From: Escherichia phage PNJ1809-36
Sequence record: MT944117.1
Strand: one strand, 5' to 3'
DNA: 64,000 nt
Of this stretch, positions 25,734 through 54,389 are shown one piece after another. The position numbers and the translations under genes are program-made. The notes below the pieces were generated by a model. That model had not been told where the DNA came from, made no database searches, and saw only the letters and a program-made list of their open reading frames with translations. The first letter of the stretch is position 1. Each line of letters starts with the position of its first letter.

Positions 25734-27326
25734 TTAACGATCCTCTCTGATTTGATTAATCTTACGAGCAAGGGCAGCTATAAGCTTATCTTCTTCGGAT
25801 ACAGGAGCCGTGCTCTTACCTAAACGATGCATGTCTAAAATCTCTTGAACAGTCCGGTTCCATTGCAGACATTTAATACAACGTGTATGTGCAACATACA
25901 GAAGATTTCGTTCTGATTCTTCAAGACCTACCCACTCACCCTTCTTATCATAATTGGAAGGGAAGTCATTTGCAACAATAACCTGATCCCATTCCAAACC
26001 TTTTGATTTGTGGGCTGTAGTTAAAGTAACTTTAGCCGTTGGAGAGTTACGGTGCATACGTAAAGTATATGCAATATTATTAGCTTTACCAGAAACAACA
26101 ATGTTTAAAAGTCGTTTTGCATCAGGATCTGATTCTGCACACTCTACAAATTCTTCCCAAGAAGTGTAAGGGAGAACTGTCTCATGCTTAACTTTGTCCA
26201 AATCACCTCTACGTAAAGCATTAACACTATCAACCATAGAAATGAAATCTTTGGTATCTACGTTAATAATAATCTCTTCTCCGTTAGCGATTCGGTCCAT
26301 AGCTTCGAGCAACAGAGTCAAATTCTTACGGAAAATAATGGTGTAAGGTTTACTATAATCTACCACATCAGAATGAAAACTTCCAGTGACAGTATCATAA
26401 CCTTTGCCTACCAGCGGATGCTTCAGAGGTGAACGATCAGAAAGGATCGCATTAGCAATTTCCGCAACTTTAGGACCAAAGCGAAAACAAGCTGTCAGAG
26501 GCAACTCAACCCCATATGTAGCCGTTTGCTTCATCATGTTCTGGCTTCCACGGAACTGATAAATACTCTGAAATTCATCACCCACAACAACAATACGTTT
26601 AGCCGATTTAGCATTGCGAAGGATAGACAGGAATGCAGGGTTAACATCCTGGAATTCATCTCCGAAAATAATATCATATCCTAAGTCTTCTTTGCTCAAT
26701 TCAAATAGTTTCACATAGGTGTCATGAGTCATAATTGTTTCTGATTTAGGATCAATACGCTCACGCCAAAGTTGCTTCGCATATTTAACAACTTCGTTAA
26801 TAAGTTTTTGTTCGTTGATGTTTTTACGTTTTAGGTCTGACATGTGCACTTTAGGAAAATGTTTATGTCCAATATGTTCATCGTCAGAAAACTCATATTT
26901 AGCTAAAGTTTGTTTGACCATTAACCCGATCATTGCACGAGTCAGTAGCACTTTACCTTTCTTATCGATCAAGTTCTGAATCTTGAATTTCTTGGCAATC
27001 TCACTACCAGTTCCAGCTACGTTAACATATTGACCTTCTGGACGAGATAATTTGTGTCGAAGGTTTTGTGGAAGACGCTGGTAACAGATAGAATGTAGCG
27101 TTCGGCACATAACATTAGGCGGCATTTTACGTCGAGCTTCCTCTGCCATACTTTTGTTAAATGCCAAGTATAGAATACTATCATTTGTGCCATTAGCCAA
27201 CATATACAGTGTTGACGTTTTACCTGATCCAGATTTAGCTTGAATTGTAACGAAACGATTTTCTTTATACCCGCTTTCAATAGCGTATTGTTCCTCGGTA
27301 GGTGTAAAACTCAATTGTGTAGACAC
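25734..27326 (-). CDS. UvrD/Rep-like superfamily 1 DNA helicase
   Basis: 530 aa; Walker A AKSGSGKTS, motif II FGDEFQDVNP, motif III VGDEFQSIYQFRGS, motif V/VI TAHKSKGLEWD; GTG start with AGGAG SD. Confidence 0.85.
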   Translation of the reverse strand: MSTQLSFTPTEEQYAIESGYKENRFVTIQAKSGSGKTSTLYMLANGTNDSILYLAFNKSMAEEARRKMPPNVMCRTLHSICYQRLPQNLRHKLSRPEGQYVNVAGTGSEIAKKFKIQNLIDKKGKVLLTRAMIGLMVKQTLAKYEFSDDEHIGHKHFPKVHMSDLKRKNINEQKLINEVVKYAKQLWRERIDPKSETIMTHDTYVKLFELSKEDLGYDIIFGDEFQDVNPAFLSILRNAKSAKRIVVVGDEFQSIYQFRGSQNMMKQTATYGVELPLTACFRFGPKVAEIANAILSDRSPLKHPLVGKGYDTVTGSFHSDVVDYSKPYTIIFRKNLTLLLEAMDRIANGEEIIINVDTKDFISMVDSVNALRRGDLDKVKHETVLPYTSWEEFVECAESDPDAKRLLNIVVSGKANNIAYTLRMHRNSPTAKVTLTTAHKSKGLEWDQVIVANDFPSNYDKKGEWVGLEESERNLLYVAHTRCIKCLQWNRTVQEILDMHRLGKSTAPVSEEDKLIAALARKINQIREDR

Positions 27327-27340
27327 GTATTTCTCCTCTC

Positions 27341-27850
27341 TTAATAAAAACTCTTGACAATCCTCATCATTTCCTTAGCTCTGCTGGCATAAGGTTCTTT
27401 TAGATTAGGTGGCAAATGTGCATTAATGTACCCCATTTGTTTTTCCCATGTCCACTTATCTTTAAATCTTGGCATGGTGTCTCCTGCTAAACTGTTTTCT
27501 TTTCGTGTTTGAATAATCCAATTGCATGGAAAATGCACACCACCTTTACGGAAGGGAATATAATGTCCCAATGTGAATGCCTTATTGTTCTTTAAACGTC
27601 CAGCTAAATTAAGATTAACAATAAGACTACGAAACACGTAGTATTGATAAAGATTGTCAACAGTATATACAGAGTAGTATGCTCTAAGTGCATTATCTCT
27701 ACTAAGATTACCAACATCCAAACTGCACCAGTTTAAATTACTTGGATCGTAGTTGTGATTATCAATCCATTCTTCTCTTTCCTCAAATTCTGCATTAACA
27801 GCAGACTGCCCTGCTGTAGATACAAAAAGAGAATTTGCATCAAAGAACAT
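27341..27850 (-). CDS. hypothetical protein (about 169 aa)
   Basis: ORF track trimmed to ATG with GGGGGAG SD. Confidence 0.5.
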   Translation of the reverse strand: MFFDANSLFVSTAGQSAVNAEFEEREEWIDNHNYDPSNLNWCSLDVGNLSRDNALRAYYSVYTVDNLYQYYVFRSLIVNLNLAGRLKNNKAFTLGHYIPFRKGGVHFPCNWIIQTRKENSLAGDTMPRFKDKWTWEKQMGYINAHLPPNLKEPYASRAKEMMRIVKSFY

Positions 27851-27869
27851 ACTCACTCCCCCCCTTTTT

Positions 27870-28223
27870 TTAGTTTACATCGTTTAGAGCATTACCAATC
27901 TTTAAGATAATAACATCATTAAGAGCTTCTTCTCCATTAAGGCCAGAGAAAGCAGGAGTAACGAAAGTTACCATATAATAATGGTCTTCTTGTAGGATTG
28001 CGATAACGCCGTCTAGTTTAACATCTCCTGTGAAACGAAAAACTTTCAACTTTTGTTCTAAAGGAAGATCTCCTTCAACATTTAAAACCATATCTCCGAC
28101 ACCAAACCTTTCTGCCCCGATGTAGATGTAAGCTTGGTCCTCTTTTTTATGATAATACAATGTTGCTTGTTTGTCTTGTAGTGTTGTGATACCAAACACA
28201 TCTACATCAATAATATTTTTCAA
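27870..28223 (-). CDS. hypothetical protein (about 117 aa)
   Basis: ORF track 27870..28280 trimmed to TTG with GGAGGAG SD overlapping upstream stop. Confidence 0.4.
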   Translation of the reverse strand: MKNIIDVDVFGITTLQDKQATLYYHKKEDQAYIYIGAERFGVGDMVLNVEGDLPLEQKLKVFRFTGDVKLDGVIAILQEDHYYMVTFVTPAFSGLNGEEALNDVIILKIGNALNDVN

Positions 28224-28588
28224 AAATTCTCCTCCCAAATCCAATAATTGTCTACATAAGTAGGATGCCTTTTGTCCCACTCTTTTCTAGCCCAAGCTAC
28301 GGCTGCTACCAATACATCTCCATGACAAAGTTGAGGTGAGCAGAAGCAAACTAAATCTTTCCCTTCTAACTCTAATAAATCTTCAAGAGGGATCTTACCA
28401 CAACGAATTTGCTCCCACAACCACTCTTTATACCTTTGTATGGTTGATCCTCGTGGTTCATCATCTTTTAACTTAAAAGGATTTGCAAACTTAGAGGCTT
28501 TTAGTCCCATATGTGGCATTGCTCTACCAATATAAACAGCACCCTCTGGGATTGTTTTGCCTAAATGGTAAAAGTTTAATACCTTCAT
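28220..28588 (-). CDS. DUF4326-like protein
   Basis: 122 aa; GAVYIGR...SKFANPF resembles the DUF4326 signature. Confidence 0.45.
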   Translation of the reverse strand: MKVLNFYHLGKTIPEGAVYIGRAMPHMGLKASKFANPFKLKDDEPRGSTIQRYKEWLWEQIRCGKIPLEDLLELEGKDLVCFCSPQLCHGDVLVAAVAWARKEWDKRHPTYVDNYWIWEENF

Positions 28589-28589
28589 A

Positions 28590-28952
28590 TTAACCTAAAC
28601 ACATACGTGCGATCAGACCCTGGATGAGTTTATCTGCTTCTTCACGATCATAGTCGGTATCTTCTATACCACCATCTTCGTCACGATAAACTTTACCTTC
28701 CAGGTACCCAGCATCGATCAAACCAATAATCAAATCGAACTGCCAGCAAGAGTTACCGAAAGGGCGTTTTCCACTGAAACTATCTTCTTCTTCCTAAAGC
28801 GTAGAGAGCAGTCGTCTGAAATATTCACGCACAGTAACAGTGCCAAGATCATCGTCTTCAAAAACAACATCTAAAGCATCTGGTTCAGCTTTCTCTACAA
28901 CAGGCACATAACGTTGACCATTAATAACAACATCTACGATTGTTTCTCTCAT
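28590..28952 (-). pseudogene. 120-codon reading frame interrupted by a single in-frame TAG (28794-28796)
   Basis: ATG at 28950-28952 overlaps upstream stop; 52 codons, then TAG, then 67 further sense codons in the same frame with no start of their own. Confidence 0.4.
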
Positions 28953-29311
28953 TTTTCCTCCTTTTTGTATTCAATGAACATATCTGTATAGTAAGCTTTA
29001 CGTTCTTCAAATTTAGCAGGGTTTACCACAATGAACAACACCTTTCTGTTGTCTTGTGGTTCTTTGACTGTAATATATAAATCTTTTGTGCAATAGAAAC
29101 CTGTGGCTTTGTAAGCGTCACCCCAATTATCCACTCCACGATCTATACGATCAAACTTGCAGTTATACTTTTTATCATCCACCTGGTAGACAGCCTCCCC
29201 ACCATACCAAGTGAAGAATTGGCTACCTTCCACCCCAATCTTGAAACCATCACGGGCGGCTGTAGCATTGGTGGCAATCATCAACATAAGGACACAAAGT
29301 AGCCTTTTCAT
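28949..29311 (-). CDS. secreted protein (120 aa)
   Basis: ORF track; signal peptide MKRLLCVLMLMIATNATAA. Confidence 0.5.
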   Translation of the reverse strand: MKRLLCVLMLMIATNATAARDGFKIGVEGSQFFTWYGGEAVYQVDDKKYNCKFDRIDRGVDNWGDAYKATGFYCTKDLYITVKEPQDNRKVLFIVVNPAKFEERKAYYTDMFIEYKKEEK

Positions 29312-29617
29312 TTAGAATTCCTCTTCAGTCTTCTGTCGGTTTTTGAAGAATACTACGTCATATACCTCTCCGTAACCATCTTTTACACAAAACATAATAA
29401 AACGATCATCTTCTGCTGTTGGTGCACGATGTTCAAGTTCAAAACTTTCAATAAAACCGCGTGAATTTACGTAGTAGATTTCATCCTCACCAGAGAACAT
29501 CCAATCCCTGTCTATCAGATAGAAAGCTAAACTCACAGGCGACAACTCATCCTTCACAGAATCATTGTACAGCATGTGGGCTGCAACTGCCAAACTTAAA
29601 GTCGTATTGTGCCGCAT
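29312..29617 (-). CDS. small protein, paralog family B (101 aa)
   Basis: ORF track; paralog of 29617..29925 (TLSLAV, YELE-RAP, DEDD-YIM-YV). Confidence 0.5.
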   Translation of the reverse strand: MRHNTTLSLAVAAHMLYNDSVKDELSPVSLAFYLIDRDWMFSGEDEIYYVNSRGFIESFELEHRAPTAEDDRFIMFCVKDGYGEVYDVVFFKNRQKTEEEF

Positions 29618-29925
29618 TACATCTCCTCGTCGGACTTCAAGGCTTTAGAGAATACTACATTAAACATTTCACCGCAACCATTATTAACATAATACATGAT
29701 GTAATTATCATCTTCGTCTACAGGCGCACGATACTCCAGTTCATAACTATACAAATTAGAATCACTTGTGCAACCTTGTGGATACCAAAAGTAGAGTTCA
29801 TCCCCAGATTCTACCCATTTAAGACCAGTCCGATCTTCAAACACCAATGTAGAAGGGTTTTCTGAATCTTTCACAGCTTCTTCATACTGTTGATGTACCA
29901 TAACTGCTAATGATAATGTACTCAT
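29617..29925 (-). CDS. small protein, paralog family B (about 102 aa)
   Basis: ORF track trimmed from GTG to adjacent ATG. Confidence 0.5.
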   Translation of the reverse strand: MSTLSLAVMVHQQYEEAVKDSENPSTLVFEDRTGLKWVESGDELYFWYPQGCTSDSNLYSYELEYRAPVDEDDNYIMYYVNNGCGEMFNVVFSKALKSDEEM

Positions 29926-30098
29926 CACGCCTCCAAATAGTGTTTACAAATGACAAAACGCCATGTTTGTTTGTAATAGTCTCTTTTTTCAAGAGCCTCT
30001 TTGTAAGAGGGTATACGTTGCGACAGAAGCATCCATTCACAATCTGCACCCATTCTTCCATAAAGCGCGTAACGGATGTTACTTTGTTTATCTCCCAT
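29925..30098 (-). CDS. hypothetical protein (57 aa)
   Basis: Manual translation MGDKQSNIRYALYGRMGADCEWML...; AAGGAGG SD; stop overlaps next start. Confidence 0.4.
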   Translation of the reverse strand: MGDKQSNIRYALYGRMGADCEWMLLSQRIPSYKEALEKRDYYKQTWRFVICKHYLEA

Positions 30099-30141
30099 AA
30101 ATGCCTCCTTAATCTTGTTTACAAGTATACCCTCTAATTAG

Positions 30142-30339
30142 TTACACTTTTTCCCAAGTACCAAAAGCACAGGAAGGGTAGATTCCAACTTGAGGGTTTC
30201 CGTTATCATCTTTGAAAGTAAAACTGTTGTTGTCTTTATCAAGAACTGTAGAATAAATCTTACCAACAGTAACGCAGTTGGAAGCTTGACCCAGTTCAGT
30301 GAGAGTAAGACATTTCATTTTCTGTTTCTTTGTAGCCAT
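30142..30339 (-). CDS. hypothetical protein (65 aa)
   Basis: ORF track; own promoter upstream. Confidence 0.45.
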   Translation of the reverse strand: MATKKQKMKCLTLTELGQASNCVTVGKIYSTVLDKDNNSFTFKDDNGNPQVGIYPSCAFGTWEKV

Positions 30340-30369
30340 TTATAAAATCTCCTTAGTAAGTGAATCTTT

Positions 30370-30399
30370 ATTCTACACAAAGAGCTTTGCACATGTCAA
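30370..30399 (-). promoter_or_regulatory. sigma70-like promoter (TTGACA-18-TAGAAT) whose -35 is flanked by an 8-bp inverted repeat
   Basis: Minus-strand read acaaagagttacTTGACAtgtgcaaagctctttgtgTAGAAT. Confidence 0.45.
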
Positions 30400-30421
30400 G
30401 TAACTCTTTGTCAGATTAGTC

Positions 30422-30691
30422 TTAATGATTGGTGATGTTGATGACAATCTTAGTTTCAACCTTAGCCCAACAGTAATCTGCTTCATTAAAACGACTAGTC
30501 ACAATGTATTCTCCTGCACGAGAACCTGTTAAGCACACTGCACCTGTATCTGTAGCTAAGTAGTAGTCCCGTTCTTGTTCACTTACTTCTGAATCGTAGT
30601 AGTAGAAAACAGACATAGGTTCAATTTCAGATAAACGGTATAACTTTGGAACAGGGGATTTCTCGATAAACTCAACAGAAGTTTTACTCAT
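30422..30691 (-). CDS. hypothetical protein (89 aa)
   Basis: ORF track; TAGGAGAAAA SD. Confidence 0.45.
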   Translation of the reverse strand: MSKTSVEFIEKSPVPKLYRLSEIEPMSVFYYYDSEVSEQERDYYLATDTGAVCLTGSRAGEYIVTSRFNEADYCWAKVETKIVINITNH

Positions 30692-50232: not shown

Positions 50233-50241
50233 GATTATACA

Positions 50242-50263
50242 AGGGGCGCACTAAGCGCCCTTT
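50242..50263 (+). other. GC hairpin after gene (weak terminator)
   Basis: aggggcgcACUAAgcgcccuu with only a short U run. Confidence 0.35.
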
Positions 50264-50290
50264 AACGTAAAGAAATGTAAATAATGCGCT

Positions 50291-50327
50291 ATCCCCTATT
50301 GACAGGGGATCGGCGTTATATTATATT
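50291..50327 (+). promoter_or_regulatory. promoter (TTGACA-17-TATATT) with -35 embedded in a perfect 7-bp inverted repeat (operator-like)
   Basis: atcccctATTGACaggggat. Confidence 0.5.
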
Positions 50328-50372
50328 TAACTCACTGGCAGCAAACAACGAAACGAAACAAAGGACAACACC

Positions 50373-50792
50373 ATGAACATTAAATCAAATAATCCAGCTT
50401 ACTCCTTCGATAACGCTTTTTGTCACGGTAGCGCCGCCAAAGGCTTCGAAATCGATGGTAAATTGGTTATCGTGAACGTTGACGGGGAAGAGGTTGCAGT
50501 ATATCCGGTAAACGATGTTAAAAGCCGTTTACAATGCCGCATGGATGTTACCGCATATCAGCTTGATCCGGTCCGTGTAGTTGCCCTGGTATTAGAGGAA
50601 GAGATCAAAGCAATGCATCATAGTAATAAGTTTATTGGTGACGCGCAGGATAATATGAACGTTTGCCGCCATAAAGTTAATGAAGCCTTGAAAGAATGCG
50701 GTTTTAAGGATCTGATGATTAAACGTGATGAAAAATTCCGCTTTCGTAATGACCTGGCAAACCGGATCTACTCAATCTATGAAGCGTTATAA
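50373..50792 (+). CDS. hypothetical protein (139 aa)
   Basis: ORF track. Confidence 0.45.
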   Translation: MNIKSNNPAYSFDNAFCHGSAAKGFEIDGKLVIVNVDGEEVAVYPVNDVKSRLQCRMDVTAYQLDPVRVVALVLEEEIKAMHHSNKFIGDAQDNMNVCRHKVNEALKECGFKDLMIKRDEKFRFRNDLANRIYSIYEAL

Positions 50793-53777: not shown

Positions 53778-53921
53778 CTAAGAACACCCCAGGTTGGAAT
53801 CAGTGCTCAACACCTCGAAAAAATTCTCTCCAATGATAGCAGCAATACTGTTATCAAAGGTAGAATATAGTCGCATATAATCTTCATCCTGGAAACGGTA
53901 GACATGACCTTCTTTAAACAT
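53778..53921 (-). CDS. antisense-oriented small protein (about 47 aa)
   Basis: ORF track 53778..54002 trimmed to ATG with AAGGAG SD; only leftward gene in this block. Confidence 0.35.
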   Translation of the reverse strand: MFKEGHVYRFQDEDYMRLYSTFDNSIAAIIGENFFEVLSTDSNLGCS

Positions 53922-54005
53922 TGTATGCTCCTTCTTGTTCAAGAGTGAAAGGAATGATTTCACCATAGCTGTATCGCATAGCATCAACTTCTGCTTCTGC
54001 ACGTT

Positions 54006-54389
54006 GTGCTAGTTCTAGTGTTGCACAGATTTTATATGGGGTTGTTGAGCACTGATGCAAATGGTAATATCTTGTCAATTGTTGTGATAGGGAGAGACGG
54101 TATTATCACTGCTAGTGATGGGGATCGTTACATAATCAATTCTGCTCATATAGATTATTTTGTTGACGGTGGTATTCGTGGTGGTCGTGGAAAACCCCAA
54201 GAAGAACCTGTTGATACAACAAAAGAAGAGTGGTATGTTGTAATGACTGATGACACCTGTATTTCTGGATTTGAAAGTTATGAAGAAGCTTTGAAAGAAG
54301 CAGCAGAGCATAAAATGGCTAATCCTACAGAAGAGGTTGAAGTTTATAAACGTTTGGTTGTTGCTACCATCGGCGTATCTTTTGTTTAA
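54006..54389 (+). CDS. hypothetical protein (up to 127 aa, start uncertain)
   Basis: ORF track; no convincing SD at GTG 54006 or ATG 54036. Confidence 0.35.
   Translation: MLVLVLHRFYMGLLSTDANGNILSIVVIGRDGIITASDGDRYIINSAHIDYFVDGGIRGGRGKPQEEPVDTTKEEWYVVMTDDTCISGFESYEEALKEAAEHKMANPTEEVEVYKRLVVATIGVSFV

Follow-up and report, generated by a model that had tools for sequence, protein, structure and literature searches.

A small gene of Escherichia phage PNJ1809-36 was found to be interrupted by a single in-frame amber codon, and this interruption probably arose by a recent TGG-to-TAG nonsense mutation that made a new pseudogene of a conserved accessory gene, with the changed base itself taken to be real. 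The analysis covered a 64,000-nucleotide stretch (the window) of sequence record MT944117.1, the complete PNJ1809-36 genome being 152,343 bp. The affected gene lies on the minus strand at 28590-28952, where the coding sequence (CDS) bounds of relatives and collinear DNA define an ancestral 363-nt gene of 120 codons plus TAA belonging to the family phrog_15618. It is interrupted at codon 53 by TAG at 28794-28796, which reads CTA on the plus strand. The region is 97-99% identical to the genomes of the Phapecoctavirus members P3322, tuntematon, ASO2A and SKA64, which are phAPEC8-like E. coli myoviruses of ca. 150 kb. SKA64 was the top match to the window in a phage search and is given as the phage closest to PNJ1809-36 by its own authors in a passage of PMC10282059. 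PNJ1809-36 is the K1-capsule-dependent phage of Gong et al. 2021, as cited in passages of PMC12488582 and PMC11641727.

The start codon of the interrupted gene is an ATG at 28952-28950, and its frame ends with TAA at 28592-28590 on the minus strand. The TGA of an upstream gene encoding 120 amino acids overlaps this ATG (ATGA, 28951-28949), and a Shine-Dalgarno sequence, AGGAGG (28957-28962, minus strand), was read 4 nt 5' of the ATG. The 52-codon open reading frame (ORF) with a coupled ATG described in the initial annotation was thus confirmed on the minus strand; together with its TAG it occupies 28794-28952, and an exact look-up identified its product as GenBank QPI12788.1. The TAG and the 67 same-frame sense codons reported to follow it were likewise recovered on that strand, the latter forming a C-terminal remnant that ends in TAA (28590-28793, minus strand). 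The initial annotation had added that these 67 codons hold no start of their own. In the literal sense this was incorrect, as a TTG occurs at codon 20 (28733) and an ATG at codon 63 of the distal stretch; the claim stood in so far as no Shine-Dalgarno sequence could be read before either of them. From the TTG, a 47-aa ORF without an upstream Shine-Dalgarno sequence runs on the minus strand over 28590-28733 and corresponds to GenBank QPI12787.1. The next gene downstream on the minus strand (28220-28588, QPI12786.1) encodes a DUF4326 protein (PF14216, E=4e-20), and its ATG at 28588 is one base past the TAA of the interrupted gene. The DUF4326 product has 122 aa and belongs to phrog_464; in several RefSeq phage records it carries the label 'ribonucleotide reductase NrdA-like', a name that looks like a propagated misnomer.

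The gene was compared with its counterparts in related phages, as the initial annotation had proposed. Tuntematon, P3322 and phAPEC8 each annotate a single unbroken 363-nt CDS whose bounds correspond exactly to 28590-28952, and in a four-way DNA alignment of these phages with the window the sequences were collinear with zero indels, all three relatives having TGG at codon 53 and running past the TAG site to the same TAA. The orthologues G377_gp036 of phAPEC8 (YP_007348598.1) and gp077 of tuntematon (YP_009986453.1) have the same locus and the same length as the window copy, which shares 99-100% amino-acid identity with its phrog_15618 orthologues outside codon 53 but, unlike them, is interrupted. 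The changed base is window position 28795, which is T on the plus strand versus C in the relatives, so that TGG becomes TAG on the coding strand and Trp53 becomes a stop. TGG was also found at codon 53 in the metagenome contig OBRO01000001.1 and in two Logan contigs. Codon 53 was the sole private difference of the window in the alignment of orthologue DNA. Seven other codons varied among five close DNA orthologues, and since the variation was synonymous in all seven, the gene appears otherwise to be under purifying selection. The distal 67 codons are undegraded, contain no indels and keep the amino acids of the orthologues. By our own arithmetic, 67 stop-free codons have a probability of ca. 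1% by chance at 39.4% GC; evidently chance does not account for the open distal frame, whose codons specify precisely the residues seen in the intact orthologues.

The distribution of the amber allele was then traced in sequence collections. A 61-nt probe centred on codon 53 matched 28 phage records, none of which was identical to it. An exact-pattern scan that allowed any base at the variable position matched one metagenome contig, which carries TGG, and the same kind of scan gave no match in viral_contigs, genome_contigs or complete E. coli genomes. Two Logan contigs encoding a DUF4326 protein identical to that of the window both have the intact 120-aa gene with TGG. Logan contig ERR11438078_41 (run ERR11438078) is 99.93% identical to window positions 26219-30588 (4,370 bp). 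The two differ in three places only: the amber base 28795 and position 29288 are substituted, and position 27865 has a 1-nt indel; the substitution at 29288 sits in the upstream gene and the indel is intergenic. The proteins of both fragments were singletons among ca. 15 billion proteins, with PNJ1809-36 as their sole source; the 52-aa product had no entry in the gene-position index, and its exact cluster look-up returned a singleton cluster. As judged from these comparisons, the TAG is private to the PNJ1809-36 record. Since the distal 67 codons are undamaged and a phage that is 99.93% identical still has TGG, the change would also be very recent. A recent nonsense mutation and a sequencing error had both been offered as readings in the initial annotation, and both draw support from the TGG of the orthologues and from the restriction of the change to one record.

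In the second of these readings, the T at plus-strand position 28795 results from a mistake in sequencing, assembly or consensus calling, or was picked up as a minority variant of the lysate, while the phage population has TGG and an intact gene. We regard this as rather unlikely, and as less likely than a real mutation. It agrees with the occurrence of the allele in one record only and with the TGG of a near-identical independent contig, and the affected base is the final C of a CCC run in the relatives; however, the change is a substitution and not a (homopolymer) indel, and base 28795 lies outside Dcm (CCWGG) and Dam (GATC) sites. A C-to-T change giving TGG to TAG is, moreover, the classic way in which genuine amber mutants arise, whether spontaneously or by deamination. 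The quality of the surrounding sequence bears on the same question. Within the shared ca. 64 kb, every P3322 ORF of 45 or more codons was screened against the window for stops and frameshifts, and the flagged ORFs were matched to annotated CDSs. Among annotated genes, the interrupted one alone had an internal stop, and no P3322 annotated orthologue in the shared ca. 64 kb was broken by a stop or frameshift apart from the flagged cases, which speaks against a generally faulty record. A second apparent broken gene, at 50284-50789, was rejected as such: it was accounted for by a 5-bp indel in the 5' untranslated region and a different annotated start in P3322, with no disruption. A third flagged annotated gene, the homologue of XRL27566.1, is split by a 242-bp inversion. 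This inversion, private to the same record and bordered by short inverted repeats, is possibly an assembly artefact and slightly lowers trust in the assembly.

The inverted segment occupies 53799-54040 (242 bp) relative to P3322, and collinear coverage of it was found in none of 110 related phage records, so that it appears private to the PNJ1809-36 record. Imperfect inverted repeats with a shared 14-nt exact core, ATCAGTGCTCAACA, border it at 53794-53823 and 54032-54061. The inversion breaks the homologue of P3322 XRL27566.1 into two ORFs, one on the minus strand (53778-54002) and the other on the plus strand (54006-54389). The inversion could be real or a misassembly. At window positions 50240-50375, a near-consensus promoter (TTGACA, 17 nt, TATATT) was observed upstream of the gene at 50373-50792, and the window differs from P3322 there by a 5-bp insertion (an AACGA repeat) in the 5' untranslated region of this gene. 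The annotated start of its P3322 counterpart appears to be too far upstream.

The position of the stop within the protein was assessed using the family as a guide. An intact orthologue that differs from the window protein at codon 53 only matched the phrog_15618 profile over positions 1-120 of 120 (E=9.7e-77). The intact protein gave 39 homologue clusters (E 8e-74 to 1.5e-14) with identity as low as 41%, and the family is widespread among phages. In an alignment of 40 sequences, comprising these 39 clusters and the P3322 orthologue as the query, Trp53 was invariant (40/40), as were L52, F59, G61, K62, R63, P64, F65, G66, N67, S68 and W70; the stop sits at the head of the conserved core LWxEExxFSGKRPFGNSCW. 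An AlphaFold2 model of the intact protein (pLDDT 85.7, pTM 0.76) consisted of one compact alpha/beta domain with residue 53 near the end of a helix (41-55). Beyond the stop, the model placed the conserved loop, a helix (72-81), a hairpin (86-101) and a further helix (103-119), more than half of the fold being downstream of Trp53. The stop therefore falls inside a single compact domain just before the invariant core motif, and the upstream part is not a complete unit. Searches of phrog_15618 against Pfam, NCBIfam models and PDB folds yielded no match in any of them. The neighbourhoods of three distant homologues were all modules of DNA or nucleotide metabolism (RNA ligase with DnaB-primase; RNase H with dUTPase and ThyA; ThyX with RNR), and no partner gene was common to the three.

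It had also been suggested that the amber codon is decoded deliberately, by programmed readthrough or by a suppressor tRNA of the phage or host, to give isoforms of 52 and 120 aa. The distal frame is indeed wholly open and undamaged, as such decoding would leave it; however, the stop is absent from all 39 homologue clusters, from the P3322 query and from the DNA orthologues examined, which have Trp (TGG), and it replaces the invariant Trp within the folded core rather than lying between two modules or at a domain boundary. The residue inserted by known E. coli amber suppressors is Gln, Tyr, Ser or Leu, which counts against readthrough at a position where Trp is invariant. The folding of 106 nt around and after the stop showed no stimulatory RNA structure 3' of it, as the minimum free energy was -18.6 kcal/mol versus a mean of -24.8 kcal/mol for shuffled controls (z=+1.73), i.e., the controls were the more structured. 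Furthermore, the window has 136 non-overlapping ORFs with 50 or more codons, of which 17 terminate in TAG, and the same holds for 10 of the 89 window ORFs of at least 100 codons. Since TAG serves as an ordinary ORF terminator, the standard genetic code is in use in the window.

A tRNA able to read the codon was searched for as well. The Phapecoctavirus cluster of ca. 10-12 tRNA genes includes Gln-UUG and, in some annotations, Tyr-GUA, and both lend some plausibility to suppression: Tyr-GUA is one anticodon change from the amber suppressor CUA, and a single change would turn Gln-UUG into UUA, an ochre-type suppressor able to read UAG as well. ARAGORN detected no tRNA in the 64-kb window, the tRNA cluster of PNJ1809-36 itself lying outside the window. 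When ARAGORN was applied to P3322 (bases 1-150,000) and to the SKA64 and ASO2A clusters, no CUA anticodon was found; each of the three gave an identical set of ten tRNAs, namely Met, Ile, Pro, Gln-UUG, Gly, Thr, Asn, Ser, Arg and Met. The annotation of ASO2A adds Tyr-GUA and Ser-UGA to these ten, and these two come from tRNAscan-based annotations and are marked pseudo in some records. The cluster (P3322 41988-43909) is 98-99.5% conserved across the genus. The search for an amber-suppressor tRNA advised in the initial annotation was hence negative in the window and in three close relatives. With a stop that is not conserved, a hit in the core at an invariant Trp, TAG as a normal terminator and an unstructured RNA, programmed readthrough or suppression with two isoforms did not hold up. 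None of the testable defining features of programmed readthrough or codon reassignment was found, these are not supported, and we consider deliberate decoding very improbable.

In the GenBank record of PNJ1809-36, each half of the gene has its own entry as a hypothetical protein, QPI12788 (52 aa) for the proximal and QPI12787 (47 aa) for the distal part. The consecutive entries QPI12786-QPI12790 were exact matches to the DUF4326, 47-aa and 52-aa ORFs and the next two upstream proteins, and the BFVD match A0A7S9XCN5 (47 aa), present also in UniRef, was 100% identical to the distal ORF. If this naming as two hypothetical proteins were taken at face value, the halves would be two working genes, one for a 52-aa protein and the other for a 47-aa protein restarting at TTG 28733. 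Yet no Shine-Dalgarno sequence precedes this TTG, residues 53-72 would be lost with invariant family residues among them, all other family members are unsplit, and each of the two fragments is a singleton. Two working genes are accordingly a scarcely credible reading, and split genes and readthrough or suppression are highly unlikely even when taken jointly. QPI12787 is best regarded as a gene-caller artefact that picked up leftover coding signal.

Comparison with known systems places the gene beside the classical amber mutants of T4, lambda and T7, in which a G:C-to-A:T transition converts TGG or CAG into TAG. The features shared with those mutants are a single transition, an otherwise undamaged coding sequence, a change confined to one stock, and a product that is cut short in any host lacking an amber suppressor. 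Unlike theirs, this allele came about spontaneously, or through an error, in a natural isolate, and it lies in an evidently dispensable gene. Programmed readthrough, as for Q-beta A1 at UGA and MuLV gag-pol at UAG, likewise involves a long same-frame opening past the stop. In those systems, however, the stop is conserved, the upstream protein is complete and a defined context or structure promotes readthrough, whereas in the window gene the stop is private, a single domain is cut at an invariant Trp and there is no downstream structure. Amber reassignment in some crAss-like and Lak phages, where TAG is read as Gln with a phage suppressor tRNA, similarly places TAG within conserved genes. In contrast to these phages, PNJ1809-36 has one such TAG in ca. 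64 kb and uses TAG as a normal terminator, no suppressor tRNA was found among the genus members searched, and its host is E. coli with the standard code.

Based on these results, the course of events under the preferred reading, a recent nonsense mutation, is proposed to be as follows. The TGG of Trp53 would have become TAG through one transition, from G to A on the coding strand (C to T at plus-strand position 28795). Translation would still initiate normally at the coupled ATG and would terminate after 52 residues, and the truncated product would lack the invariant FSGKRPFGNSCW loop, two helices and the beta-hairpin. As most of the fold is missing from the 52-residue product, it is reasonable to expect that its function is lost. 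Full-length product would be made only through background near-cognate misreading or when the phage grows in a host with an amber suppressor. Provided that the base is real, the interruption hints that the gene is dispensable for lytic laboratory growth of a Phapecoctavirus.

Effects on the downstream gene were also considered. The 204 nt past the stop would be left untranslated. Rho-dependent polarity on that gene was set aside: with 28% G and 15% C, this stretch is rich in G and poor in C, which makes a rut site unlikely, and strong Rho polarity is therefore not expected. The early stop may weaken translational coupling into the DUF4326 gene, which would then rely on its own weak ribosome-binding site, AGG.

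An isolate-specific amber nonsense mutation is a kind of feature that is already known, and its biological weight here is small, as it is either one isolate-specific knockout or a database error. For curation, QPI12787 and QPI12788 represent one disrupted gene, both now being singleton families in protein databases, and the record should carry one pseudogene feature in their place. It is improbable, though of more consequence for the family, that the amber is both real and selected, i.e., that losing the phrog_15618 protein helped growth on the K1-capsulated APEC host; an example would be a host defence that senses the protein, with a nonsense 'escape' allele becoming fixed. If the loss were selected in this way, the private knockout would hint at a phenotype for the uncharacterised phrog_15618 family of nucleotide-metabolism and replication modules.
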